NCBI GenBank assembly: GCA_964462555.1
Contig: CAYWXY010000001.1
Span: forward strand, 1,577-65,576
Reading direction: 5' to 3'
Source of the DNA: an uncultured Pseudomonadota bacterium
Lineage (GTDB): Bacteria > UBA10199 > GCA-002796325 > CAYWXY01
DNA: 64,000 bases
Shown here piece by piece: positions 3,582-31,871 of the stretch. Every line of letters begins with the position of its first letter. Within the stretch, counting starts at the first letter, position 1. The translations under genes were made by a program, and so were the position numbers. The notes under the pieces were generated by a model. The model saw only the letters and a list, made by a program, of their open reading frames with translations. It ran no database searches and had not been told where the DNA came from.

Positions 3582-6500
3582 ATGATATGGGGCTGTACAC
3601 CATACCGACCGCCGCCGGCCGACTATCCCGAGCTCCCGGATGTCTCACTCCATGACGTCATTCACGACACCCTCGTTATTAAAGACACGAAGGGTGGAGA
3701 CTCCCTCTTTGACTCCTTCTGGGATATTAAAGAAAAATACGATGCCGAGATTGATACGTTCAGAGAAGATGCGGATGGCTTTGTTGATGCCGAAACGAGC
3801 GATACGTCAGACACCTTTGATGCGTTTGATGGCGAAGAGATGTGTGAAGATCTCTGTTTTGATATTTCAGATAGTAACGATGGTGACGCAGAAGTTTGCG
3901 AGTTTGTTGGCGAGATTGACGATACCTGTGATGATATTGACGACGACTGTGACGGCGAAACCGATGAAGAATTTCCCATAGAATTGACCGAGTGTGGCGT
4001 TGGAGGTTGCCTTTCAACGGGCATCTTGGCCTGTGTCGGCGGCGACATTGTTGATACGTGCGTTGAAAAGCCGGCCGAGATTGACGACAGTTTTTGCGAT
4101 GGTATTGATGGCGACTGTGATGGATGGACCGACGAAGATTTTGAATCTGAAACCACGTCATGCGGTATCGGTGCCTGTTTTTCAGAGGGTTTAACACTAT
4201 GTATTGGAGGCGAGGTTCAGGATAGTTGTGAGCCCGCCCTCCCCGCACCAGACGATCCGGGCTGTGATGGCATTGATGATGACTGTGATGATCTGGTTGA
4301 CGAGGACTTTATTCCATATCCAACGTCCTGTGGGGCTGGGGCATGTGCCGCTGATGGTGAGGCGACGTGTGAGGGAGGTTTCATCATCGACAGTTGCGAG
4401 CCGCTAGCCACAGCACCAGACGATAGCGAATGTAACGGCATCGACGATGACTGTGACGGCGAAACAGACGAAGACTTTGTCTCAATGGTAACTGCTTGTG
4501 GTATCGGGGGTTGTGCCTCCGTTGGGCTAACGTTGTGTGTCGGGGGAAGTGTTCAAGACAGTTGCAAGCCAGGAAAGCCCGCGCCAGACGATGCGACATG
4601 CGACGCTATCGACGACGATTGCGACACAAAGATAGATGAAGACGTTCATCCGATTGAGACCGAGTGTGGCACGGGAGCTTGTTTGGGTTTAGGGCTGGCC
4701 ACATGTCTAGACGGAATAATGGTTGATAGCTGTGAAGAGGGAGTGCCGGCCCTGGACGATTCGGAATGCAACGGGATAGACGATGATTGTGACGGCGAAA
4801 CCGACGAAGAGTTTGTGTCTTCAGCCACCGAGTGTGGTCTTGGCGGCTGTGTTAGCACTGGAAGCACCAGTTGTATCAATGGAGAGGTTCAAAATAGTTG
4901 CACGCCAGAGATGCCAACCCCTGACGATGCCAAGTGTGACGGCGTCGATAGTGATTGTGATGAAGAGGTAGACGAAGACTTTATGCCATACGGTATTCAG
5001 TGTGGCGTTGGGGGCTGTATCGCGGACGGCCTGGCCATCTGTTTGAATGGTGAAATTTCGAATGAATGCACACCGGGAGCGGCGCTGGAAGATGATACGT
5101 CATGTGACGGAATCGACGGTGATTGCGATAGTGAGACCGATGAAGATTTTGTCTCAATGGCAACAATGTGTGGCACGGGTGGATGTTTGGCCGAGGGGAT
5201 CACACTCTGTATTGGTGGTGGCATTCAAGACAACTGTGTGCCCGGAGAGGCGGCGCCGAACGATGCGAGCTGTAATGGCGTCGACGATGATTGTGATGGC
5301 AAAACTGACGAAGATTATGTTCAGCAGATAACGAAATGCGGCGTTGGCGGCTGTTTTGAAGAGGGGGCGACCACCTGTTTGGGTGGCGTGATTTTGGACA
5401 GTTGTGTGGCGGGAACTCCTGCTCTGGATGATTCCGAATGCAATGGTATCGATGATGACTGCGATGGCGAAACCGACGAAGATTTTACCTCACAGGCAAC
5501 GGAATGTGGCACGGGGGCTTGTCTTAGCAGCGGAGAGACAAGCTGCATTAATGGTGTCGTACAAAATAGTTGTACCCCACTCTCCCCTGCCTTTGATGAT
5601 GCAACATGTGATGGTATCGATGATGACTGCGATAACGACCTTGACGAAGACTTTACTCCCTACAGCATTCAGTGTGGTATCGGAGGCTGTGTCGCGGACG
5701 GCCTGGCTATCTGTCTAAATGGTGAGATTTCGAATGAATGCACGCCGGGAGCGGCGTTGGAGGATGACACGTCATGTGACGGCATCGACGGTGATTGCGA
5801 CAGCGAGACCGATGAAGATTTTATCTCAATGGCAACAATTTGTGGCACGGGTGGATGTTTGGCCGAGGGCGTCACGCTCTGCATTGGTGGCGGCGTTCAA
5901 GACAACTGTGTGCCCGGAGAAGCTGCGCCGAACGATGCGAGCTGTAATGGCGTCGACGACGATTGTAGTGGCGAGACCGACGAAGATTTTATTTCAGAAA
6001 CAACAGAGTGTGGCACGGGTGCTTGCTGGGCCCAAGGCCTAACCATTTGTCTAAATGGTATGTTGATAGAAAATTGTGAGGAGCTTCTCCCGGCCATTTA
6101 TGATTCGGAGTGTAATGGTGTCGACGATGATTGCAATGGCGAGACCGACGAAGATTTTGTCTCACAGGCAACGGAATGTGGCACAGGAGCTTGTGTTGAT
6201 AGCGGAGAGACAAGCTGTGTTAACGGAGAAGTTCAAAATAACTGCGTTCCACTGCAACCCGCCCTAGATGATGCAACATGTAATGGTGTCGATGATGATT
6301 GCAATGGTGAGAGCGACGAAGACTTTATTCCCTATGGCATTCAGTGTGGCGTGGGGATCTGTCAGGCGAACGGTTTGGCTATTTGTCTAAATGGTGAAGT
6401 GGTTAATGAATGTACGCCTGGCCTCCCAGCACCAGACGACACATCGTGCGACGCGACAGATAACGATTGTGATGGCTTTAGTGATGAAGATTACATTCCC

Positions 6501-9500
6501 GAAACATCGTCATGTGGTGTGGGGGCATGTATCTCGGAAGGAACCATTTATTGTATTGGCGGAGCCTTTGTTGATAACTGTGAGCCCGGCCAACCCAGCG
6601 TCGAACTCTGCGACAATATCGACAATAATTGTAATAATGTTATCGATGATGATTGTATTGAAGGGGATTTCACCTGCGATGGCGTCGACGACGACGAAGA
6701 TGGCGAAACCGATGAAGAGTTTGAGCCCTACCCCACGTCATGTGGTATCGGGGAATGTTTTGCCGAGGGGCTTGCCACCTGCGTGAACGCCTCAATCATC
6801 GATAGTTGCGAGCCGGGAAGTCCGGCGCCGCTTGATACCATTTGCAACAATCTAGATGAAGATTGCGACAGTAATACCGATGAGGATGTTATTCCCGTTG
6901 AGACATATTGTGGAACGGGCGCTTGCGCCGCCGAGGGTCTTGCTATTTGTGTGGGCGGTGAAATGCAAGACAGCTGCACACCCGGGCAGGCGGCAGCGAC
7001 CGACACGTCATGTGACGGTGTGGATAATAATTGCAATGGCGAGACGGACGAAGGATTTATTTCGTATGCCACGTCATGTGGTCAAGGTGCCTGTTTGGCT
7101 GAAGGGCTCGCCACCTGTGTGAATGGCGATGTGGTGGATGATTGCACGCCTGGAAATCCCGCTCTTGATGATGCGACATGCAATAACGTTGATGACAACT
7201 GCAACGGATTTATAGATGAAGATTTTGTTCAATCAATAACGAATTGTGGTGTCGGTGCTTGTGAAAAGAGTGGGACAACATCGTGTATAGATGGCGACGT
7301 CATAGATAGTTGTGTTCCTGGGCAAGCGGCGCAAAATGACACCAGTTGCAACGCTGTCGACGATGACTGTGACGGTGAGGAAGACGAAGATTTTATTTCA
7401 CAGGCAACAGAATGTGGCACAGGCGCCTGCTCTTCCACGGGGCAGACAACGTGTGTGGCGGGCGAGATCGTTAATGATTGTGTTCCAGGTGACCCCGCAG
7501 CCAATGATGCGACATGTAATGGCGTCGACGATGACTGTAACAATGAAACGGACGAAGATTATCAAAATGCCGTCATCCAATGTGGCGTTGGCGCCTGTCT
7601 GGCCGACGGTCTGAAATTGTGTGTAAATGGCGAGCTGACAGACGAATGCACGCCCGGCCAGCCGGCACCCACTGATTCAACCTGTGACAATGTGGATAAT
7701 AATTGTAATGGCGAAACTGACGAGGGCTTCGTTTCTTATGCAACTTCTTGTGGTCAAGGCGCCTGTTTGGCTGAGGGGCTGGCCACGTGCGTCGGCGGCC
7801 AGGTCGTTGATAGTTGCACGCCTGGAAACCCCGCTCTTGACGATGCGACCTGTGATAACATCGATGATAATTGTAATGGGTTTGAAGACGAGGATTTTGC
7901 ATCAACCGTAACGAACTGTGGCGTTGGTGCCTGCGAGGCGAGCGGCACAACATCGTGTGTGGATGGAGATGTCATAGATAGTTGTGTTCCTGGGCAGGCG
8001 GCGCAAAACGACACTAGTTGCAACGGTGTCGACGATGACTGCAATGGTGAAACAGATGATGGTTTTGTGGCCCAGGTAACCGAGTGTGGCGTCGGGGCCT
8101 GTGCGGCAGAGGGCGCAACCGCCTGTGTTGACGGAGAGATAACAAATAACTGTACGCCTGGAGACCCGGCAGGAAGTGACGCCAATTGTGATGGTGTTGA
8201 TAATAATTGTAATAATGAAGTTGATGAAGATTATCAAAATGCCGTCATCCAATGTGGCGTTGGCGCCTGTCTGGCCGACGGTCTGAAATTGTGTGTAAAT
8301 GGCGAGCTGACAGACGAATGCACGCCCGGACAGCCGGCACCCACTGATTCAACCTGTGACAATGTGGATAATAATTGCAATGGCGAGGCTGACGAGGGGT
8401 TCGTTTCTTATGTAACCTCTTGTGGCCAGGGTGCTTGTCTGGCCGAGGGATTGGCAACGTGTTTGGCTGGAAACATTATCGATAGTTGTCTCCCGGGGGA
8501 GGCTGCCGCCAACGATTCGACGTGTGATAATGTTGACGACGATTGTGATGGTTTTAAAGATGAAGATTTTATCCAGGTGGTTACCAACTGTGGCGTGGGT
8601 CCCTGTGAAAAAGAGGGAATCACATCATGTGTCGACGGTGAGGTTATGGATAGTTGTCTTCCGGGAACGCCAGCACCGAGTGATGTTAATTGCGATAATA
8701 TTGACGACGATTGCAATGGCGAGGCCGACGATGGCTTTATCCCATATGATATAGAATGTGGCACGGGTGTCTGTTTTGCCGAAGGGCTTGCCCTTTGCGT
8801 TCAGGGCAGCATTGTTAACGATTGTGCCGAGGGTGAACCGACCGGAAACGACAGTGACTGCGATAATACAGATAATAATTGCAATGGATTTGTCGATGAA
8901 AATTTTGTTCCGTTTGGGACAGGGTGTGGTGTAGGTGCCTGTGCGGCCGAGGGTATGGCGACATGCGTGGGAGGAGAAATTCTTAACAGCTGTACACCAG
9001 GAGAAGCGGCCCCAAACGACACAACATGTGATGGTGTGGATGATGACTGCGACAGCGCGGTCGACGAAGATTATCAAAATGTCATTATTCAGTGTGGCGT
9101 CGGCGCCTGTGTTGAAGATGGATTAAAGCTATGCGTCGGTGGAGAATTTGTCGAGAATTGCGTGCCCGGAGACCCAGCTGAAAATGATACAACTTGTGAT
9201 GGTGTCGACGACGATTGTAATGGATTTAATGATGAAGACTTTAATCCGTATGGCACCAATTGTGGTGTTGGTGCTTGTTTCGCCGCAGGAACAATGACGT
9301 GTGTGGGCGGGCAACTTCAGAACGACTGTGAGCCGGGTGCTCCAGCGCTCACCGACGACGAATGTGATGGTATTGATAATAATTGTAACGGTACGACGGA
9401 TGAAGAATACGCACCAGAGATAACGGCCTGCGGCAGCGGAGCGTGTGCCGCTGAAGGAACAACGGAATGCATGGAAGGCGATATCATTGATAATTGCACA

Positions 9501-11387
9501 CCCGGGCTCGGAGCTGACGATGATCTAACCTGCGATGACGTCGACGACGATTGTAACGGTGAAACCGACGATGGCTACATTCCACAAAATACAGAGTGTG
9601 GTGTTGGCGCCTGTATGGCCGAAGGAATTACATCTTGCGTCGGTGGAACAGAGGTCGACGATTGCGCACCTGGAACGCCGGCCGAAAGCGATACCAATTG
9701 TGACGGCGTCGATGACGATTGTAATGGCGTGGCAGATGATGGATTTGTTTCGTATCCAACAAATTGTGGTCAAGGTGCCTGTTTTGCCGAAGGACTCGCG
9801 ACCTGTGTTGGCGGGGCTATCATCGATAGTTGTGAAGAGGGAACTCCGGCCCTTAACGATGTGACGTGCGATAATGTCGACGACGATTGCGATAATGAAA
9901 TCGACGAAGATTATATTGGCAACGCGATTCAATGTGGCGTCGGCGCCTGTATTGCAGACGGCATCACAGCCTGCGTTGGTGGGACAGAGCTCGACGACTG
10001 TACGCCGGGCCAACCCGCTGCAAGCGACACGACCTGTGATAATGTCGATGATGATTGTAACGGTGTGGCGGATGATGGTTTTGTTTCGTATTCGACAAAT
10101 TGTGGTCAAGGTGCCTGTTTTGCCGAAGGGCTTGCAACTTGTATAAATGGGATATTGAGCGACAGCTGCGAAGAAGGGATTCCGGCCCCGAACGATGTGA
10201 CATGCGATAATGACGACGATGATTGCGATAATGAAATCGACGAAGATTATATTGGTAATGCGATTCAGTGTGGTGTCGGCGCTTGTCTAGCAGATGGAAT
10301 CACAACATGCGTCGGTGGGGCAGAGCTCGACGACTGTACGCCGGGTCAACCAGCGCCATCGGATGAAAGTTGTGACAACGTCGATGACGATTGTAATAAC
10401 CAGACCGACGATGGTTTTGTTCCCTACTCCACCGAGTGTGGTGTAGGCGCATGCGTAGCCGAGGGAGAAGCGACCTGTGTGGGCGGAGAAATTCAGAATA
10501 GCTGCATACCGGGAATGCCCGCAATTAATGACGAGACATGCAACAACATCGACGACGACTGTGACGGCGCGACCGATGAAGACTTCGCATCCTATGTTAC
10601 GAGTTGTGGCGTCGGCGCCTGTCAAGCTGAGGGCCTGGCCACATGTGTGGGTGGAGAAGTGATCGACAGTTGCACGCCAGGAGAGGCGGCGGCCAACGAT
10701 GTAACATGCGATAATGTTGACGATGACTGTAATGGCGAAACCGATGAAGACTACGTTCCAACTGGGATGAGTTGCGGTGTTGGATCATGTGTTGAAAGTG
10801 GTCTCATACAGTGTGTGGGCGGCGAATTAATTGAAGAATGTACGCCGGGAACGCCAACCGATGAAATTTGCGATGGACACGATAACGATTGTGATGGAAA
10901 TACCGACGAGATCTGCATTGACAATATTCAAACGGGCTCCCTTCTCCTTGTTGGCTACACGACGCCGGCGAAGACGGAGATCATCAATAAAGAGGTTTTT
11001 GCAACAATCATTACCGGAGAGGCCCCCCTTCCCGATTCCTTTACGGTGGCGATTGAACATTGTATCGAAGAAGTCTGCACGACGACCGACCCGGTCGCCC
11101 TGGCTAACGGTATTGAACTCTGTGATTTTTCAGTGGGGCTTGGAAATGAGGCGTGCGAAGAAAATCAACCGGCCCCCATCAAGGAGTCAAATATTCTAGA
11201 TCTGACACTTGCGCAACTGATTCCCGGAATGAATCTTTGGTCCCTCTCTCAAGATGAAACATTCCGCGGCAACGTCACAACGTTGTCATACGACCTCGGC
11301 GGTTATAATATTGGTCTCGAGATTCCGATCCCCAACGCAGATGCGGCCTCATGCTACTATCTCTTTAACACCTACGCCTGCGATTAA
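3582..11387 (+). CDS. Giant (2601 aa) acidic cysteine-rich tandem-repeat protein. About 50 copies of a 45-aa six-Cys module ending in an LDLa/TSP3-like Ca-binding loop CDGxDDDCDGxTDEDF. No N-terminal signal peptide. Unique 190-aa C-terminal domain. Likely Ca-binding surface/secreted adhesin-like protein
   Basis: Single uninterrupted ORF. Repeat pattern C-x4-C-x7-C-x8-C-x11-C-x6-C with motifs CG(T/V)G(A/G)C, CxPGxPAxxD and CDG(I/V)DDDCDGETDEDF. Alternating module subtypes (ATECGTGAC.. / IQCGVGGC..). Near-identical DNA blocks recur at 672-bp offsets. First in-frame start is ATG 3582, with a stop at 3534. Confidence 0.85.
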   Translation: MIWGCTPYRPPPADYPELPDVSLHDVIHDTLVIKDTKGGDSLFDSFWDIKEKYDAEIDTFREDADGFVDAETSDTSDTFDAFDGEEMCEDLCFDISDSNDGDAEVCEFVGEIDDTCDDIDDDCDGETDEEFPIELTECGVGGCLSTGILACVGGDIVDTCVEKPAEIDDSFCDGIDGDCDGWTDEDFESETTSCGIGACFSEGLTLCIGGEVQDSCEPALPAPDDPGCDGIDDDCDDLVDEDFIPYPTSCGAGACAADGEATCEGGFIIDSCEPLATAPDDSECNGIDDDCDGETDEDFVSMVTACGIGGCASVGLTLCVGGSVQDSCKPGKPAPDDATCDAIDDDCDTKIDEDVHPIETECGTGACLGLGLATCLDGIMVDSCEEGVPALDDSECNGIDDDCDGETDEEFVSSATECGLGGCVSTGSTSCINGEVQNSCTPEMPTPDDAKCDGVDSDCDEEVDEDFMPYGIQCGVGGCIADGLAICLNGEISNECTPGAALEDDTSCDGIDGDCDSETDEDFVSMATMCGTGGCLAEGITLCIGGGIQDNCVPGEAAPNDASCNGVDDDCDGKTDEDYVQQITKCGVGGCFEEGATTCLGGVILDSCVAGTPALDDSECNGIDDDCDGETDEDFTSQATECGTGACLSSGETSCINGVVQNSCTPLSPAFDDATCDGIDDDCDNDLDEDFTPYSIQCGIGGCVADGLAICLNGEISNECTPGAALEDDTSCDGIDGDCDSETDEDFISMATICGTGGCLAEGVTLCIGGGVQDNCVPGEAAPNDASCNGVDDDCSGETDEDFISETTECGTGACWAQGLTICLNGMLIENCEELLPAIYDSECNGVDDDCNGETDEDFVSQATECGTGACVDSGETSCVNGEVQNNCVPLQPALDDATCNGVDDDCNGESDEDFIPYGIQCGVGICQANGLAICLNGEVVNECTPGLPAPDDTSCDATDNDCDGFSDEDYIPETSSCGVGACISEGTIYCIGGAFVDNCEPGQPSVELCDNIDNNCNNVIDDDCIEGDFTCDGVDDDEDGETDEEFEPYPTSCGIGECFAEGLATCVNASIIDSCEPGSPAPLDTICNNLDEDCDSNTDEDVIPVETYCGTGACAAEGLAICVGGEMQDSCTPGQAAATDTSCDGVDNNCNGETDEGFISYATSCGQGACLAEGLATCVNGDVVDDCTPGNPALDDATCNNVDDNCNGFIDEDFVQSITNCGVGACEKSGTTSCIDGDVIDSCVPGQAAQNDTSCNAVDDDCDGEEDEDFISQATECGTGACSSTGQTTCVAGEIVNDCVPGDPAANDATCNGVDDDCNNETDEDYQNAVIQCGVGACLADGLKLCVNGELTDECTPGQPAPTDSTCDNVDNNCNGETDEGFVSYATSCGQGACLAEGLATCVGGQVVDSCTPGNPALDDATCDNIDDNCNGFEDEDFASTVTNCGVGACEASGTTSCVDGDVIDSCVPGQAAQNDTSCNGVDDDCNGETDDGFVAQVTECGVGACAAEGATACVDGEITNNCTPGDPAGSDANCDGVDNNCNNEVDEDYQNAVIQCGVGACLADGLKLCVNGELTDECTPGQPAPTDSTCDNVDNNCNGEADEGFVSYVTSCGQGACLAEGLATCLAGNIIDSCLPGEAAANDSTCDNVDDDCDGFKDEDFIQVVTNCGVGPCEKEGITSCVDGEVMDSCLPGTPAPSDVNCDNIDDDCNGEADDGFIPYDIECGTGVCFAEGLALCVQGSIVNDCAEGEPTGNDSDCDNTDNNCNGFVDENFVPFGTGCGVGACAAEGMATCVGGEILNSCTPGEAAPNDTTCDGVDDDCDSAVDEDYQNVIIQCGVGACVEDGLKLCVGGEFVENCVPGDPAENDTTCDGVDDDCNGFNDEDFNPYGTNCGVGACFAAGTMTCVGGQLQNDCEPGAPALTDDECDGIDNNCNGTTDEEYAPEITACGSGACAAEGTTECMEGDIIDNCTPGLGADDDLTCDDVDDDCNGETDDGYIPQNTECGVGACMAEGITSCVGGTEVDDCAPGTPAESDTNCDGVDDDCNGVADDGFVSYPTNCGQGACFAEGLATCVGGAIIDSCEEGTPALNDVTCDNVDDDCDNEIDEDYIGNAIQCGVGACIADGITACVGGTELDDCTPGQPAASDTTCDNVDDDCNGVADDGFVSYSTNCGQGACFAEGLATCINGILSDSCEEGIPAPNDVTCDNDDDDCDNEIDEDYIGNAIQCGVGACLADGITTCVGGAELDDCTPGQPAPSDESCDNVDDDCNNQTDDGFVPYSTECGVGACVAEGEATCVGGEIQNSCIPGMPAINDETCNNIDDDCDGATDEDFASYVTSCGVGACQAEGLATCVGGEVIDSCTPGEAAANDVTCDNVDDDCNGETDEDYVPTGMSCGVGSCVESGLIQCVGGELIEECTPGTPTDEICDGHDNDCDGNTDEICIDNIQTGSLLLVGYTTPAKTEIINKEVFATIITGEAPLPDSFTVAIEHCIEEVCTTTDPVALANGIELCDFSVGLGNEACEENQPAPIKESNILDLTLAQLIPGMNLWSLSQDETFRGNVTTLSYDLGGYNIGLEIPIPNADAASCYYLFNTYACD

Positions 11388-12871
11388 TCGTTACTGACGA
11401 GACCCTGAATGAAATAGGGATTAAACGTTTGATCGATCGATGAAAACTCTTGCCAGATCAGCGCAAAGCCATTCTCCTGCGATACAAACGAATCTCCAGC
11501 GACGGTTCCCTGAATAAGTAGGGACTCGTTGGAAGAGAGCGCCCTTCCCGACTGATCGATTTTTGTCAGGTAGGTATTATGAAAGGTGATGCCGGTGTAG
11601 CCCGAAGCGACAGCGTAGGCACTATAGGTTGTAAAATGGGTATCGTTCCAGGTAATCACGGCGCCATCACGATTGGTCGCAATTTCTTTTCTTTCGACAA
11701 GAGCGGCACCAGCGGGACTATATCTTGCAAAGTATAAAGAGCCGATATTAGAATCATCACGTACAACCCAGGTAACGCCCATAGAGGCGCCATCCCAAAC
11801 GAGACTCGGAGTGGTGGAATAGACAGAAGTGTCGGAAATGAGGAGGGCAGAGGTGTCGGAGGAGATATCGGGCTTAAGGTAGATATTCATGAGGTCGCCG
11901 TCTCCAACTTCATTCCAGGTTGCGGCGTAGCTGGAAGACGTCGTGATCAAGATAAGGCGATGTGATCGTGATTCACTGTTGGATATATTCTTTGCGGCGG
12001 TCTTTTCGCTACCGTCGGCGTTGAGAGTCATAAAGTAGATATCGGACCACCAATTGGAACCGCTGTAGCCACACCACGCAAGACCATATTCATCATCTCC
12101 TGAAACAATGGAAATGCAGTCAGTGTTGGTGTGGACAGAGGGTATTTGACGCGCGGGAACGGTCACCGTTCCACTGGCGTCCATTCGCGTAAAATAGATA
12201 ATATCATTGTCGTCCTCTTCCAGACCGTAAACAATTGCGAAATCGGTGCCGTTCCAAGCAATGTCATTAATTGAAATAGTGGGTGTCCCCGATACGAATG
12301 GCATCAATTCGGAATGACTGTTTGTCGACGGATCGAGCGTTACAAAGTTATTATGTGCTACGAGGCCATAGATCGTTCCGCTATAAGCCAAGGCAAAAGG
12401 ATTCGTTTCAACATTTGCGGCAAGCGAGGTCATGTCGATTTTGGATCGAACAACAAATGAAGATGTGTCTGGGTCCGTTGGGTCCAGATATGTGACGCGA
12501 GCTGTTGTCTCAACTTCGGAACCGTCCACCGATAGCGAAGTGGTCAAAATTTTATCATCGTCATCGACAGTTCCGTTGAATACGATTTCTGTGCCATCAG
12601 AAAGGGTTGGGGATATCGAAAAGGCGCTGTCCGTGATTAAAACAGAAACGGTGGCACTTCCTGACACGGTCCCATCGATACTCGATTTGGAAAATGTGCC
12701 ACTTCCGTTGGCATCGGTTTCAAGGCTGTAGTTCGTTAGGGCCGCAGTTGTTAATGTTAGTTCCATATTGCCGAGCGGTTCAGGGTTTCCAGTCTCTGTT
12801 CCCTTTCCTGGCGTGCAGGCGTAGAGAGACACCAATACAAAAAAAAGAAGAACTTTTAAACATTGCCTCAT
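11384..12871 (-). CDS. Putative lipoprotein (495 aa) with Thr/Ser-rich N-terminal region and repeated W-x-G/aromatic blocks (beta-propeller-like); function unknown
   Basis: Signal peptide MRQCLKVLLFFVLVSLYAC with Cys lipobox-like site; recurring motifs IAWNGTDF, LAWCGYSG, ATWNEVGDGD, VTWVVRDD, ITWNDTHF, LIWQEF; 4-bp ATGA overlap with upstream gene. Confidence 0.6.
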   Translation of the reverse strand: MRQCLKVLLFFVLVSLYACTPGKGTETGNPEPLGNMELTLTTAALTNYSLETDANGSGTFSKSSIDGTVSGSATVSVLITDSAFSISPTLSDGTEIVFNGTVDDDDKILTTSLSVDGSEVETTARVTYLDPTDPDTSSFVVRSKIDMTSLAANVETNPFALAYSGTIYGLVAHNNFVTLDPSTNSHSELMPFVSGTPTISINDIAWNGTDFAIVYGLEEDDNDIIYFTRMDASGTVTVPARQIPSVHTNTDCISIVSGDDEYGLAWCGYSGSNWWSDIYFMTLNADGSEKTAAKNISNSESRSHRLILITTSSSYAATWNEVGDGDLMNIYLKPDISSDTSALLISDTSVYSTTPSLVWDGASMGVTWVVRDDSNIGSLYFARYSPAGAALVERKEIATNRDGAVITWNDTHFTTYSAYAVASGYTGITFHNTYLTKIDQSGRALSSNESLLIQGTVAGDSFVSQENGFALIWQEFSSIDQTFNPYFIQGLVSND

Positions 12872-13734
12872 GAATTGTCCTCACTCTTTGTTAATTTGAT
12901 AAAGCCGAGATTGATATTAACCACCTCGGTCTTGTTGTTGTTCCCCTCCTCCAGCTGCCGATGCAGTTTTCGACGAAACTCCTGAAGGGCGTCCTTCAGT
13001 TCGGCCATCTTCTCTGTTGAGATGGCCATTGTGATTGCAGAAAACTCGCGGTCGTCGACCGGATCCATTTTGACGGCTTCTTTGGATAGTTCCATCAGCT
13101 GTTCGTGAAATTCGGTGATCGAAAGGCTGCGGACCACATTTGGGGTCGCGAGCATCTCATCCGTTTTTTTAAGTCGACCAGCCTCATCGCGAGAGATCAG
13201 GCCGAGCCCTTCAAGTTCCTTCATGGCATGTTTGGCCTTTGGGACAGAAATAGGCGGCTTTAGCTTGTTTGCGATCCAATGATAATCCTCACGAAAATTA
13301 TCCAAACGCACAACCTCCATCAGTGCCAAATAGTACCAATTCGAATAAATCTTATAGTACTTTGACTGAAGCGTCGCCGGACTCTTCTTTGGTGTAAAGT
13401 CGACAAGTTGTTGGTAGTAGAGATTTTTTTCATCGTATGTGCCGGCTTGGCAAAAATTGACGAGCGCATGAAAAAAACGCGATTCTTTTTTGGAAAGACG
13501 AAAGCCTTTGCAGATCTTTTCGGCACTATCTGACGTCAGATTTCGCTTGCCGTCCATGATGAGTTTAAGATGGGCAGGCGATTTCATTCCGGCACGCCGA
13601 TTGAAGTTTCGATATGAGAATGTGGGGAGTGTCTCCTTGAGGAAGGAGATTCGATCCTTGAGGAATTCGCGATAGTCAACGAACTGATAAATCTCCTTGA
13701 TCTTGATTTCGTCATTGTTTATTGAATCGTCCAT
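12868..13734 (-). CDS. TIGR02147-like family protein (uncharacterized; N-terminal HTH-like region), translationally coupled to the downstream lipoprotein
   Basis: N-terminal YQFVDYREFLKDRISFLKETLPTFSYRNFNRRAGMKSPAHLKLIMDGKRNLTSDSAEKICKGFRLSKKESRFFHALVNF resembles the DYRxFLxD...FSYRxFAxKAG..SP..L..VI.GKRNL signature recalled for the TIGR02147 family (from memory, not searched). Confidence 0.55.
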   Translation of the reverse strand: MDDSINNDEIKIKEIYQFVDYREFLKDRISFLKETLPTFSYRNFNRRAGMKSPAHLKLIMDGKRNLTSDSAEKICKGFRLSKKESRFFHALVNFCQAGTYDEKNLYYQQLVDFTPKKSPATLQSKYYKIYSNWYYLALMEVVRLDNFREDYHWIANKLKPPISVPKAKHAMKELEGLGLISRDEAGRLKKTDEMLATPNVVRSLSITEFHEQLMELSKEAVKMDPVDDREFSAITMAISTEKMAELKDALQEFRRKLHRQLEEGNNNKTEVVNINLGFIKLTKSEDNS

Positions 13735-26549: not shown

Positions 26550-27854
26550 GTGGGCATGACTAAGTTATCAACTTGGGCGCGGACCAATCTAGTCAAAGTG
26601 GGCGATTTTTTGCCAATCAATCTTGGTCTCGGTAAAGTATGTCCAGCAGTAGATGTGGTTGCTTCCGGGCAAGAAATTGATTCCGGGATCAATATTCTAG
26701 GCGGACAGGCCAATATTGTTGAGGGGATTATTCTTCCTCAGATTCCTGAAGATGAAGCCGCTGGTTTTCTGGAGGCAATCTCCGCATTTGAAGATGCGGC
26801 CTTCGATTACTTTGTCGATATCGATCCGACCAATCCTCTCAAGCCAATCGATATCGGTTGGCAAAATCGTCATCGCATCCAACAAGTTTTAAGTCGTCCT
26901 GGTTTTCAGGCTGCACTCGGTATTTGCGGTTCTTGTTTGGCAACTGCGGTCACGGGACATCTTGTTCCGTATGAAATTGGCGCGCGCATCTTTTCGACCG
27001 CCATGGTTGCGATTCCGCCAACCGATGCACCTAAAGAGGGACTCCTTCGTTACATGGCGGTCTCTCCCGATCTTCGTACTCACTTTACGAATCTAATGAT
27101 TCGTCTTGAACAGGCAATGCGGCGACTTGATCGATTGACACCGGACGATCTTTCATGGTTTGTAATGAAACAACTCGCAAGCCCGGAATTGATGCCATTT
27201 CTCAAGCTGGCCTTTATCGATCTAAAAGATTTGCTCTTCGAACATGATACGCTAACCATCCTTCTCTATAATACCATTCAGAATATTCTCTTTGGTGGCG
27301 ACCGAGACGTTTCAATCTACCGCGTCCACTTCAATATGACGACAATCAATGAGATGGATTCAACGAATCATCACGGGAATGTCTACCTTCGTGTTATTCA
27401 GGCCTGGTTTCAGGAAAAATTTGGAACCATTCACGTGGTTAGGAATCCAGAGCGGACATCATTTGAATTTATTGCACGTCCAGCGCGCCACGTTCGCCAG
27501 GTCATGAACTCTTTTGAAATTGAGGTTCAGCATCGGATCGCAACAGCCACGGGAGTTGATCCTGCGATTGTTGCCGAATTTATTCCGCGTGCAGTTCTCT
27601 CACGGCGAACGTTGACACGCCGAAATCTCTACCGCTACGGTGTTCGGAGCAGTGCTGACATTGTGATGTTTAGAGAGGTCTTGGAGTTTAGTGGCAGGGT
27701 CGATGTTGACGCGCTTGCGGAACTTCCTGAAGAACAACAGCTTCGTGCGGTCCATCGGGTGCGACCTGACATCGATGGTATCGTGAAGACGGGGGACAAG
27801 CGCCTCATTAAGACGCTCTACGCCGTGATGATCAAGGGAATTTCTACGCCGTGA
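26550..27854 (+). pseudogene. N-terminal fragment (434 aa) of a large hypothetical protein, interrupted by a triplicated 26-bp tandem repeat; would fuse in-frame with 27877-29505 if the repeat were single-copy
   Basis: ORF ends ...TLYAVMIKGISTP*; the next ORF begins (M)MIKGITELNAEL; removing 52 bp (two repeat units) restores ...TLYAVMIKGITELNAEL... Confidence 0.6.
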
Positions 27855-27895
27855 TGATCAAGGGAATTTCTACGCCGTGATGATCAAGGGAATTA
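27818..27895 (+). repeat. Three tandem copies of a 26-bp unit CTACGCCGTGATGATCAAGGGAATTT (third copy ends A instead of T) at the junction of two ORFs
   Basis: Directly visible: 27818-27843, 27844-27869, 27870-27895. Confidence 0.9.
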
Positions 27896-29505
27896 CGGAG
27901 CTGAACGCCGAACTCGCGGCCCAGACCACCTTCTTTGAAAAAGAGGTTGGCTTCGGTCAAATAGTCTATCTCGAAACCGAACTTCCCAAGCGGGGAAACC
28001 CCCTCCTTCCGATTTGGCAGCGATATCTTGCGGATCGAACTAATTTTGTTGGCCCCGGCCAATATGATCCGGCCTACTATAATGAAAAATTAAATGATCC
28101 GAGATTCATTGAGACCCTCTTTTTTGATGTGGGCCTTCGAACCGATAATCCAGTCAATTACTATCCGGCAGATGGTCGGTTGGCACCAGAGGTTGATGCG
28201 ATCGTTAAAACAATTCCACCACTCAGGCGTATTCAGGGTCACATGTCTCATCGTCGCCCGGGAAGCGCGGGTGGTGTGATTCAGCGCTTTGAGGCGGCCA
28301 GGAAAAATTTTCTAGCTGTTCCCGAAGGAAAACGTGCAGAGGCCTTGGCCGAGTTGCAAGAGATGGGTAAAGAGCTTCTCGATGCCTTCCGAAACTTCTA
28401 CCGCTGGGCCGTTCGAGATCCGCGAAATCTCTGGACACAAAAACAACACGAGACCTTCTGGGTGAAGCGCGGCGACGGCCTAGAAGAGGTTCCGGCCAAC
28501 TTCTTTGTTCAGGAAGTGGCGCTTGCCGGAAATACGTTCATCATGGAACTTGAGTATGATTCCTTCCGTGCCTATACGGGCGCACATGGTAAACATGACA
28601 TACAAGATAAGGACTTTAACCGTGTTCGCGATGCCGTCTGGTTGGCGGCCGCCGAAATGGATATGCCGATGCCAATTGTTAATCCATCTGGCGGCGACCA
28701 TATCTCGGTCTCTTTTTCGAGCACCAATCTCAACGGAGAAGCGGTTGATCCTGTCGCGTACTCGAAGCTGGTACAAGAGATCATCGTGGAACGGTTCAAG
28801 GATAAGCCATTCCAAGATCTCTTTAAGGTCGATGTTCGCGAGTTCCGTCTCAGCGGAAAAGGCCTAAAACGTCTTGAAGACCCCCATTTCATGGAGCAGA
28901 TGCGCCAAGACTTGAATTTTGCGGCACAGCCGCAACTAACCGCAGTTACGGACCACTACGTTGTTTTGGCCGCTGCGTCGGAGTCACGAGAGGGAGGCGA
29001 AACGACACTAGATATCATTAAGACCTATCTTGCAGAAAATGGGATGGTCGTTGACGGTGAGGCCATGTCGCTCGAGAAGCTTCGCCTCCTGATGTGGAAA
29101 AAAGAGGGGGGAAATCCAGATGAGACAGATTATTGGGTCTTTGGAAAGCTGCAACCCGATGGGTATAAACCCTTTATGAATTTTCTCTCGGTAACGATTG
29201 GTCTCGGCGAACATCGTCCCATTCGGGCCTCTTCTGACGTGGAACTCTTTGCTCAAACGGTTCACCACGCCGGTGCGGCCATGGATAAGGCCAAGACGAC
29301 CGGTTGGCCGGATAAAGGTGAGCTTGCTGATGTTCGGGGAGAGTCTCCGATCCATCGGGTGAAAACCGAAAGCAACTTCAGTAAACCGCTATTCACCCCT
29401 TCTCCAACAACCCTTTTACAAGGGGGGGTCTCATTCCTTATGAAGACGGCCGACGGTTTGGCCCACCGAGCTGTCGATTATCTCGTAGACCGTATTCTCA
29501 GATAA
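27877..29505 (+). pseudogene. C-terminal fragment (542 aa) of the same large hypothetical protein (GTG/ATG start is an artefact of the repeat-induced frameshift)
   Basis: Reading frame is continuous with 26550-27854 after removal of two 26-bp repeat copies; no recognizable domains. Confidence 0.6.
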
Positions 29506-29601: not shown

Positions 29602-29925
29602 ATGTCCGAAAATATTGTCGCAAAGATTCGAAAAGCCGAAGAAGATGCCCAGTCTTTTGTGGACCTGGCAAAGCGTGAATCAAGCGCCGGGATTGCCCAG
29701 GCCAAAAAAGATCTCGAGGCGGCTCATCAGAAGTCTGAAGCAGAATCCCGAGAACATCTCAAAAAGTTTCGAAAATCTAAGGCAGAAAAATACAGAGCCG
29801 AAACAAAACGATTAAGAGATGAAGGTAAGAAGGCAGAGACTGCCTATGCCCAGAATCTGGAAGCGCGCTTTGGTGAGATTAAGGCAAAAATCGAAGAGAT
29901 GATCAGGAAAGAGCTATGTCTATAG
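29602..29925 (+). CDS. V/A-type ATPase peripheral-stalk subunit G/H-like (small coiled-coil protein)
   Basis: 107 aa, Lys/Glu/Ala-rich heptad-like sequence; first gene of the V-type operon. Confidence 0.55.
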   Translation: MSENIVAKIRKAEEDAQSFVDLAKRESSAGIAQAKKDLEAAHQKSEAESREHLKKFRKSKAEKYRAETKRLRDEGKKAETAYAQNLEARFGEIKAKIEEMIRKELCL

Positions 29926-31871
29926 CCCGAATGGAAAAGATTCGAGTCGTCGGCCTCAAGCGTCAGCGCCGACAGATACTCGATCTCTTGCAGTCACTTG
30001 CTGTGCTGCAGGTTGAGGAAGTATGTGATGAGCCGATAACGCTCGAACGCGATATTCACTATGATTCCATGATTACCGATCTTGAATTTGCCATTGATTT
30101 TCTAGAGCCTCATGAAGAAAGCGCCAAGGGTTTTCTTGAGGGGCTAGCGCCCGGCAAGGTTATCGTCGACTATAAAGACGTGAAGGCGCGCGTTGGGAAG
30201 GTTCTCTCCGCTAAGCCGGTAAAGCGGTGTCGCCGGTTGGAATCCGAGCTCGTCAACCTAGACGAACTGGAGCGCAACCTCTCTCGCGAACGAATTCTCC
30301 TGACGCCATGGCAGGATCTTAATGAACCGCTCGAAGATCTTGTAAATATGAAACACGCGACATTTTTCGCAGGCATAATGGGAGAGCTGGAGATTGTACG
30401 GGCCCGCGAGGCCCTGGCCGATCTTCCGGCCGAGATTCAGGTGGTGAGACCGGACAAGAACGGTTCGCTAATTTTGGCCGTCGCTGAAAAAGAAGCGGCT
30501 GAAGAGGTTCAGCAAATTTTGCTGGAGAACGATTATTTACCAATCAAACTACCGGTGAGTCCACGGACGCCCAGCGAAGAGATTGCGAAGATCGATCATT
30601 CGCTGAAGGCGGCCAACGATCGCCGAAACGAAGTTATAGAAATCGCCAAGAAGATTGCTCGCGGCCGCTTCGACCTAATGTTAGCCCACGATTTCTTTAT
30701 GCAGAAGCGTGCAGCACAAAATGCCGAAAAGAAAGTGGCTCTTTCCCCATACACCTTTGTTGTCGAGGGGTGGATTCGGCGAAGAGAGCTTTCAAAAATG
30801 AAAAAAAAGCTACAGGCCTTCTTTCCCGATTCGCTTGTTGTATCAATCGAAGCGAAAGAGGACGAAGAGCCACCGGTGGCGATTGAAAACAGATCGATCG
30901 TTCGCCCATTTGAGTCGGTCACAGGCATCTACGGCCTCCCCTCGTATAAAGAGGTCGATCCGACCCCCCTCCTTTCAACCTTTTTTATCATCTTCTTTGG
31001 GCTCTGTCTTGGAGATGCAGGCTACGGAATCACGTTAGCGTTGGTCTCTTATTTTTTTTACAAAAAGGTCGGGCCGACGAGTGGCGCCAGAAAGCTACTA
31101 AAACTTCTATTCTACGGTGGCATCGCAACATTCATTGCTGGTGTCGTGGCGGGAGGTTGGTTTGGTGTCGAGCCGATCGCCTTTCCAGAGTCGTGGCAAC
31201 CTGCCCGAAATTTTCTCTTAAAGATTCGCATTCTCGACCCTGTCAACAACCCGATCCAGATGCTTCTCGTGGCCCTTTCGTTTGGCATTATTCAGATTGT
31301 CTTTGGTATCTTGATCAGCTTCTATGTCAAGGTGAGGGACGGCCTGATACTCGATGCTATCCTGGATGACCTTCTCTGGATCTATTTTCTCCTCATCCTG
31401 GTTGCCTTCGGCATCCAAAAGGCCGGGGCGATAACGATCAGTCCATATATTGGCAAGATGGTTCTCGGCGGGGTTGTGGCGCTTGTTTTGACGCAGGGAC
31501 GCAAAGAAAAGAATCTGATCTTAAAAATAGGCTCTGGCATCTTGAGCCTCTATAAGACAGTAGGTTATTTGAGCGACACCCTTTCCTACTCGCGTATCTT
31601 GGCGCTCGGTTTGGCCACATCAATCATTGCAATGGTGATTAATATGGTGGCCATCATGACGAAGGATATGATTCCAATTGTGGGATATGTCATCATGATT
31701 CTTGTCCTAATAGGTGGGCATATTTTCAACATTGCAGTGAATGTTTTGGGCTCATTTATCCATTCATCACGGTTGCAATTTGTGGAGTTCTTTTCGAAAT
31801 TTTTGGTGGGTGGCGGAACGGAATTTGACCCGCTTCGTCGCGAAAGTAAATTTGTTGAGATGAAAGAATAA
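29916..31871 (+). CDS. ntpI: V-type ATPase subunit I (a-subunit, membrane stator)
   Basis: 651 aa; hydrophilic N-terminal half and multi-TM C-terminal half with essential Arg in LSYSRILALGLATSIIAMVIN. Confidence 0.88.
   Translation: MSIARMEKIRVVGLKRQRRQILDLLQSLAVLQVEEVCDEPITLERDIHYDSMITDLEFAIDFLEPHEESAKGFLEGLAPGKVIVDYKDVKARVGKVLSAKPVKRCRRLESELVNLDELERNLSRERILLTPWQDLNEPLEDLVNMKHATFFAGIMGELEIVRAREALADLPAEIQVVRPDKNGSLILAVAEKEAAEEVQQILLENDYLPIKLPVSPRTPSEEIAKIDHSLKAANDRRNEVIEIAKKIARGRFDLMLAHDFFMQKRAAQNAEKKVALSPYTFVVEGWIRRRELSKMKKKLQAFFPDSLVVSIEAKEDEEPPVAIENRSIVRPFESVTGIYGLPSYKEVDPTPLLSTFFIIFFGLCLGDAGYGITLALVSYFFYKKVGPTSGARKLLKLLFYGGIATFIAGVVAGGWFGVEPIAFPESWQPARNFLLKIRILDPVNNPIQMLLVALSFGIIQIVFGILISFYVKVRDGLILDAILDDLLWIYFLLILVAFGIQKAGAITISPYIGKMVLGGVVALVLTQGRKEKNLILKIGSGILSLYKTVGYLSDTLSYSRILALGLATSIIAMVINMVAIMTKDMIPIVGYVIMILVLIGGHIFNIAVNVLGSFIHSSRLQFVEFFSKFLVGGGTEFDPLRRESKFVEMKE

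Follow-up and report, generated by a model that had tools for sequence, protein, structure and literature searches.

An internal triplication interrupts a single ancestral gene

The stretch analysed here, hereafter the window, comprises 64,000 nucleotides of an uncultured Pseudomonadota bacterium (assembly GCA_964462555.1, contig CAYWXY010000001.1, positions 1,577 to 65,576 of the forward strand). At 26550–29505 it carries a gene that is interrupted by three perfect tandem copies of a 26-bp segment. The most probable reading, in our view, is that a triplication recently abolished the function of this gene, became fixed in the population sampled and could in principle be reversed. The insertion amounts to 52 nt, i.e. 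two extra head-to-tail copies of an internal segment; reading of the first open reading frame (ORF1) departs from the ancestral frame after copy 1 and meets TGA TGA in copy 2. The truncated product has 432 aa and is cut in the middle of a conserved helix of 33 residues, the putative catalytic domain being left on a second frame, ORF2. From the truncation of ORF1 and the lack of a ribosome-binding site proper to ORF2 we infer that the gene no longer functions or, at most, does so at a much reduced level. Lesions of this kind are already known, and this is a further example.

Tandem Repeats Finder places 3.0 perfect copies of the unit TCTACGCCGTGATGATCAAGGGAATT at 27817–27894 (period 26, 100% matches, 0 indels). 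An earlier, sequence-only reading of this DNA had recognised the three tandem copies but set them at 27818–27895, one base too far to the right, a register that puts a mismatch in the third copy at 27895 (A, not T). The boundaries of the array are sharp: the preceding base is C versus the T that ends the unit, the following base is A versus the T that begins it, and neither a partial copy nor microhomology was found at these boundaries. An imperfect direct repeat of 19 nt lies on both sides of the array, out of register with the 26-bp unit. The 26-mer was found nowhere else in the window with up to 3 mismatches allowed (shuffles with any match: 0 of 100).

The array sits, as had been described, at the junction of two frames, 26550–27854 and 27877–29505, both of which are present in the window; gene callers applied to other assemblies start the halves at ATG 26556 (432 aa) and ATG 27880 (541 aa). 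We rebuilt in silico the alleles with 0 to 5 copies, and among them the full frame is open with one copy only. This allele forms one ORF of 967 codons (from GTG 26550) or 965 codons (from ATG 26556), reading ...KTLYAVMIKGITELNAELAAQ..., which bears out the claim that a single copy fuses the two frames. With 2, 3, 4 or 5 copies, translation terminates after codon 434 at TGA TGA (27852–27857) in copy 2, where a TGA had indeed been announced for the three-copy state. Four copies regain the frame while retaining the stops, and the gene is still closed. At this locus, then, a single state is ON and many are OFF. In the productive frame the repeat reads LYAVMIKGI, which contains the AVMIKGI proposed before, and ORF1 as it stands ends in ...LYAVMIKGISTP at the TGA 27852–27854. 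The features of the junction are as follows.

26556–27854, plus strand: ORF1, N-terminal fragment, 432 aa (ATG 26556) or 434 aa (GTG 26550), protein P0009
27817–27842, plus strand: repeat copy 1, ancestral, in the productive frame (LYAVMIKGI)
27843–27868, plus strand: repeat copy 2, inserted, one frame off (STP and two stops, TGA TGA at 27852–27857)
27869–27894, plus strand: repeat copy 3, inserted, source of the ORF2 starts GTG 27877 and ATG 27880
27854–27880, plus strand: mini-ORF of 8 codons (MIKGISTP and stop), its AUG lying in the UGAUG of the ORF1 stop and its stop in a UGAUG shared with the ORF2 AUG
27880–29505, plus strand: ORF2, C-terminal fragment, 541 aa (MIKGITELN...), protein P0002

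The closest ortholog, P0001 of locus L006 (71% identity in amino acids, 76% in nucleotides), is a single ORF of 946 aa with one copy of the segment, so that the single-copy junction which the sequence-only reading proposed to look for in orthologs does exist. The DNA of L006 carries there one diverged copy, GTCTACGCGGTTATCATCCGGGCGATT, without TGATGA. P0001 and the window gene have neighbours in common: upstream a divergent gene of about 245 aa, downstream a gene of 107 aa and the V-ATPase subunit I. More distant homologs (34–44% identity, 1100–1340 aa) continue straight across the junction; no gap across KRLIKTLYAVMIKGITELNAELAAQTTFFEKE occurs in any of 47 aligned family members, and the homologous genes of L006–L009 contain no tandem repeats of this kind. 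The two ORFs thus derive from one ancestral gene, some 965 codons long, and the alternative that they are two genuinely separate genes fails because the orthologs are not split at the junction. The gene context, by contrast with that of the closest pair, varies among distant members, and a scan of genome contigs gave as sole match a distant relative, in a metagenome-assembled genome (MAG) of Deltaproteobacteria (40% identity), the only relative among the GTDB representatives.

We propose that the array originated by a rare 26-bp duplication without microhomology, and that an easier expansion from two to three copies would then have followed through misalignment of the copies. Fixation might have come by drift, by hitch-hiking, or with loss of the protein being tolerated or even useful. 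If such misalignment removed exactly two copies, the wild-type gene would be regained without a scar, and it is because of this exact restoration that the allele can be called revertible in principle.

The three copies recur in independent assemblies

Besides the window, three perfect copies are present in six contigs, L001–L005 and L014, which makes seven sequences, 99.9–100% identical to the window. The six contigs were retrieved by exact-protein look-up (ENA ERZ23499038, ERZ23499059 and ERZ23499040; JGI 3300009375, 3300009374 and 3300009106) and correspond to six sample accessions from two sources, namely ENA third-party assemblies (two study prefixes) and JGI; in all of them copy numbers were read from consensus assemblies. 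Compared with the window, L001 and L002 have four single-nucleotide polymorphisms (SNPs) and a 5-bp deletion in common; one of these polymorphisms is shared by L003, and one by L005. The seven sequences are not one clone; they fall into two SNP haplotypes.

These data bear on the suspicion, raised at the outset, that the repeat is an artefact of assembly or sequencing and that only one copy stands in the actual genome. Short-read assemblers are well known to have difficulty with tandem repeats, and some of the seven sequences may stem from related samples or from the same reads. Nevertheless all six further contigs, with their six accessions, two sources and two haplotypes, were assembled independently and show three perfect copies, and the array of 78 bp is shorter than an ordinary Illumina read. 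Moreover, errors of de Bruijn assembly run toward collapse and not toward expansion: in our simulation a one-copy genome always assembled as one copy, and arrays might collapse but never expanded. The repeat is not a product of assembly, because assemblers collapse such an array but cannot create it; an artefact is therefore extremely improbable, and the three-copy array is genuine.

L014 calls for a remark of its own. It is an ENA contig of 1001 nt, reported in two samples, which matches window 27774–28430 at 100%, the three copies included. From the junction at window 28430 onward its positions 658–1001 (344 nt, 63% GC) are unrelated to the window, and protein P0031 is predicted from it. L014 is most likely a chimeric contig.

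An intact allele was looked for in several ways. The exact fused protein is absent from a collection of 15 billion proteins, and neither a full-length nor a junction-spanning query recovered a near-identical uninterrupted protein, a weak negative given that these searches were patchy: the junction-spanning query (165 aa) returned only P0031, a fragment of ORF2, and the full-length search had missed the ORF1 cluster. Metagenome contigs gave no match to a gapped pattern for one to three copies nor to a flank pattern independent of copy number, and this search missed the known three-copy JGI contigs too, so that the population is evidently outside that collection and the result is uninformative. 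What is found in NCBI, JGI and ENA are the two halves, deposited as separate unnamed proteins, P0009 (432 aa) and P0002 (541 aa). They are fragments of one gene, which is a caution for annotation, as two database “hypothetical proteins” of 432 and 541 aa are the halves of a single gene.

A probably young lesion rather than a maintained switch

Apart from the array, no other stop or frameshift was found in the 2.9-kb gene. Changes at family-conserved sites are not in excess in the window gene (12 specific to the window versus 21 specific to P0001, p=0.16), and all family-invariant residues are kept in both halves. The long-term ratio of nonsynonymous to synonymous substitution rates (dN/dS) is about 0.07, with dS saturated. 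The lesion looks evolutionarily young. Since neither the ortholog nor any of 46 other family members has the repeat, it is better understood as a recent lesion than as a maintained contingency tract.

Next door, the 5-bp deletion common to L001 and L002, which belong to different study prefixes, removes CCGAT at window 31251–31255 and is flanked by CC microhomology. It splits the V-ATPase subunit I gene (29916–31871) into 482 and 179 aa, versus a protein of 651 aa in the window and in L006. The JGI contigs L003 and L005 end at 30928 and L004 at 31038, just upstream of the deletion site, and these ends may reflect a mixture of the two haplotypes. As this deletion segregates beside the interrupted gene, gene-breaking indels do circulate in the population, which fits with plain mutational loss.

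The sequence-only reading had proposed that copy number toggles expression by slipped-strand mispairing. Its frame logic stands (open with one copy, truncated with two or more), whereas the slipped-strand switch itself is not supported, neither copy-number variation nor an intact allele having been found. Stated in full, the idea is that of a reversible contingency switch: the array is OFF, slipped-strand mispairing or unequal exchange gives rise to one-copy ON cells at a rate high enough to be useful, and the population contains a minority of expressing cells at all times. A unit length that is not a multiple of 3, the exact return of the ancestral ORF on losing two units, the 100% identity of the three copies and the undecayed state of both halves all speak in its favour. 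There is also a precedent: in the pneumococcal capsule genes, reversible inactivation by spontaneous duplication is documented (Waite et al. in 2001 and 2003, cited in PMC4243769). However, a single copy number is seen in seven of the seven sequences, while the states with two, three and four copies are all OFF and should be selectively equivalent, so that a mixture would be expected of a fast-slipping tract. Neither the exact look-up nor two homology searches found an intact allele, the ortholog and 46 family members lack the tract, which is hence not evolutionarily maintained, and a 26-bp unit in three copies is far from the usual tract of short units in many copies. We consider a reversible contingency switch unlikely at this locus: on/off switching is mechanically possible and unproven, fast switching is unlikely, and an evolved or actively used switch is unsupported.

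The comparison with known systems leads in the same direction. The loci known for slipped-strand phase variation by simple sequence repeats (SSR), in Neisseria, Haemophilus and Campylobacter, are reviewed in PMC11868660. Our locus resembles them in one respect only, an intragenic repeat whose unit (26 bp) is not divisible by three and whose copy number sets the frame. SSR contingency tracts have units of about 1–9 nt. They comprise many copies, persist as tracts from strain to strain and differ in length from one sibling cell to another; here, on the contrary, the unit has 26 nt, the copies are three, relatives lack the array, and it is invariant in the data. Copy number did not vary between samples (3 copies in 7 of 7, at the consensus level), ON and OFF alleles were not seen to coexist, a weak negative as the searches were patchy, and no tract is maintained in orthologs (L006, the 47 homologs, and L006–L009). 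In addition, the window gene would be ON with one copy alone and not at every third copy number.

The resemblance is closer to the pneumococcal genes cap3A, cap8E and tts, which are switched off by spontaneous tandem sequence duplications (Waite et al. 2001, 2003, as cited in PMC4243769). As in the cap3A type, we find a perfect tandem duplication internal to the ORF, absent from the wild type and causing frameshift and truncation, and exact loss of the extra sequence restores the original gene, here in silico. In pneumococcus, according to the same source, ON and OFF forms and reversion were observed in culture and the duplications differ by isolate. Here, unlike in pneumococcus, one identical three-copy allele is fixed in all sampled contigs and no ON form is seen; besides, it is a triplication, in an uncultured environmental bacterium, and not in a gene for a surface structure.

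Several points nevertheless weigh against a simple recent loss. In the de Bruijn simulation with a largest k of 55–77, any true number of at least 3 copies was reported as 3, so that “exactly three everywhere” is strictly a lower bound, the gene being broken either way. L005 and L014 start 130 and 43 nt upstream of the array, at distances that match no standard k, and these starts could be due to branching of the assembly graph near the array. Behind the consensus assemblies there may be a minority of one-copy (ON) cells. Both halves are perfectly intact, which is equally expected if the pieces are used or if revertants are periodically selected, and overlaps of the type UGAUG could allow some translation of ORF2. 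It is conceivable, then, that the array regulates and does not merely destroy, either, in this free-living environmental bacterium, as the maintained OFF state of a long-unit contingency locus or by making a two-polypeptide enzyme through chained UGAUG reinitiation; we hold this combined possibility to be slightly less likely still than the switch discussed above. If a maintained OFF state were true, rare one-copy revertants would express a previously undescribed enzyme of GGDEF fold with a GGDH motif.

Under the favoured reading of a recent loss by triplication, the locus would be a clean natural case of a short tandem triplication that has knocked out a gene and become fixed in a population from the environment. 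It also lends itself directly to testing, at the level of reads, how unstable repeats are in nature, and if reversion were demonstrated, phase variation based on duplication would extend beyond pathogens and to a unit of 26 bp.

Translation across the array

Could the two fragments be a working split gene? According to this view separate polypeptides reassemble, and ORF2 is made by termination-reinitiation through two consecutive UGAUG overlaps, from the ORF1 stop to the mini-ORF 27854–27880 and from there to the ORF2 AUG at 27880. Because each unit contains GTGATGA, a UGAUG overlap arises at the ORF1 stop (27852–27856, where the stop overlaps an AUG) and again at the ORF2 start, and both overlaps exist exactly as the route requires; the mini-ORF is thus a possible, inferred path of termination-reinitiation. 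The family-invariant residues are all retained across the halves, the MIKGI part of the helix is present on each fragment, and the best whole-chain structural matches of the fused product are single-chain proteins of the two-palm/cyclase type. In mammalian adenylyl cyclase, the C1 and C2 halves reconstitute activity when expressed separately.

On the other hand, the cut falls not in a linker but within a helix that is modelled with high confidence, in a compact fold (pTM 0.80), no aligned family member has an indel at the cut site, and no Shine-Dalgarno sequence stands at working distance from the ORF2 AUG, where we found just AAGG at −20; in comparison, AAGGAG(G) starts 11–12 nt upstream of the start in 5 of the 25 listed starts of the window. 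Two serial reinitiations without Shine-Dalgarno should be inefficient. The picture of a pseudo-heterodimer is itself tentative, the N- and C-terminal domains having no detectable relationship (hhalign 1%). The same UGAUG overlap of stop and start provides translational coupling at trpB-trpA of Escherichia coli. The window resembles trpB-trpA in having UGAUG at the ORF1 stop and again at the mini-ORF stop and ORF2 AUG, and differs from it in that the overlaps are an accidental by-product of the repeated GTGATGA, come two in series and have no upstream Shine-Dalgarno. Finally, the only other split member found, L016, looks multiply broken and not like a clean two-gene form. A working split gene seems to us improbable, to about the same degree as the contingency switch. 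A scan for promoters and terminators yielded nothing above shuffles and nothing near ORF2, and the window has no Rfam match.

L016 (positions 4001–7432; JGI 3300032978) carries a distant family member that is divided among three ORFs, of 416, 84 and 618 aa, with the first break a little upstream of the conserved helix that the array interrupts in the window. This member may be a decaying pseudogene, or sequencing errors may have split it.

Translational recoding would be another way to a full-length protein, either by a +1 frameshift in the overlap 27832–27851 or by a hop of 52 nt from copy 1 to copy 3. The frame of ORF2, open from 27832, is +1 with respect to that of ORF1, giving an overlap of open frames of 20 nt in which a productive shift could occur, and with tandem copies every take-off codon necessarily has its matching landing codon 52 nt further on. 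The hop in T4 gene 60 is of 50 nt, near the 52 nt considered here. However, the fold of the RNA around the array is no more stable than that of shuffles (−22.2 kcal/mol against a mean of −22.5, z = 0.10), and a take-off stem-loop as in gene 60 is thus lacking. As to codons, the only one adjacent to the stop, CCG 27849–27851, would land on CCG 27875–27877, again before a stop, and GGA 27837–27839 is not adjacent to a stop. For a +1 shift of the prfB type no slippery site re-pairs: CCG-UGA gives CGU, AUU-U gives UUU with a mismatch at the first position, and the only upstream AAGG is about 15 nt away. The +1 product would moreover carry an insertion of 17 aa in a helix that is without indel in 47 homologs. 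Recoding is a very remote prospect, on a par with the assembly artefact. The predicted junction peptides are RRDDQGNFYAVMIK for the +1 frameshift, TLYAVMIKGITELN for the hop from a three-copy template, and TLYAVMIKGITELNAELAAQ for one-copy cells or a hop.

A small protein family with a GGDEF-type palm domain

The interrupted gene, in our favoured reading a recent null or strongly reduced allele, belongs to a very small family that lacks annotation and whose palm domain, of the GGDEF type, bears GGDH. No model of Pfam, NCBIfam or PADLOC matches either half or the homologs. For the Pfam GGDEF model (PF00990), neither the fused protein nor any homolog scores above the gathering threshold, and one of 51 family members matches weakly (E=0.094). 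In 1.84 billion proteins, searched exhaustively with HMMER, only 66 representatives were found, and almost every one is a single chain that spans both halves.

The AlphaFold2 model, built from 47 sequences, has a mean pLDDT of 84.2 and a pTM of 0.80, with pLDDT above 90 over most of residues 160–915; the fused product is accordingly predicted to be one compact protein. The repeat-encoded residues 421–429 lie in the middle of the modelled helix 415–447 (33 residues), at a pLDDT of about 96–97. ORF1 holds a helical N-terminal region followed by the first beta-alpha-beta domain with an NPERT hairpin; ORF2 holds the conserved LAAQTTFFEKE helix, GPGQY, DPRN and the GGDEF-fold domain with E/D...GGDH.

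A GGDEF-domain fold was recognised in the C-terminal half. E649 and D651 stand on the first strand of this domain and GGDH in a hairpin at residues 697–700 (967-aa numbering), and D667, G696, D697 and K740 are invariant in the 47 members. The active-site motif GG(D/E)EF is not present: the family has GGDH instead, the residue after the invariant D being other than E. The N-terminal half comprises a beta-alpha-beta-beta-alpha-beta unit (about residues 251–354) with the conserved NPERT hairpin. The best whole-chain matches by Foldseek are two-palm or cyclase single-chain proteins, i.e. AC9, Cmr2/Cas10 and GTP cyclohydrolase III, and they are weak (E about 5e-4). Profile comparison detected no similarity between the N-terminal beta-alpha-beta domain and the C-terminal palm domain (hhalign probability 1%), nor was an internal duplication detectable in the sequence; a two-palm architecture is only a suggestion. 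A retron reverse transcriptase identity was considered and rejected, the match in the PDB profile search being insignificant (E=1.4).

Compared with the GGDEF diguanylate cyclases (PF00990) and with class III cyclases, Cas10 and GTP cyclohydrolase III, the family differs by its motif GGDH(I/L)S in place of GG(D/E)EF, by the embedding of the domain in a compact protein of about 750 residues, and by a large N-terminal part confined to this small family (66 representatives). The family may represent a nucleotide cyclase or transferase of a new type. In contig L008 (11924–19834), downstream of the homolog P0003, lies a protein of 1630 aa with Lactamase_B/Anti-Pycsar_Apyc1 and cNMP-binding domains, and a further neighbour protein has a faint cNMP-binding match. 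This cyclic-nucleotide context fits with a cyclase-like role for the family.

Genomic setting

The gene is found among the housekeeping genes yidC, mnmE, mnmG and rsmG, with a V-type ATPase operon downstream. In the window, yidC, mnmE, mnmG (gidA) and rsmG (gidB), with a DUF4423 protein among them, occupy positions within 12868–13734 (minus strand) and 1783–25544. This gene set suggests that the region belongs to the origin-proximal part of the chromosome, and the GC skew climbs steadily over the whole window. Just after ORF2, the ORF of 107 aa at 29602–29925 has a weak resemblance to subunit H of archaeal/V-type ATPases (TIGR02926, E=1.7e-4). The window also contains, at 3582–11387, an ORF of 2601 aa with many Cys-rich metal-binding motifs of the MopE type (PF11617), which carries its own internal repeats: at 9597–10541, tandem units of 336 bp are present in about 2.4 copies that are 75–80% identical.

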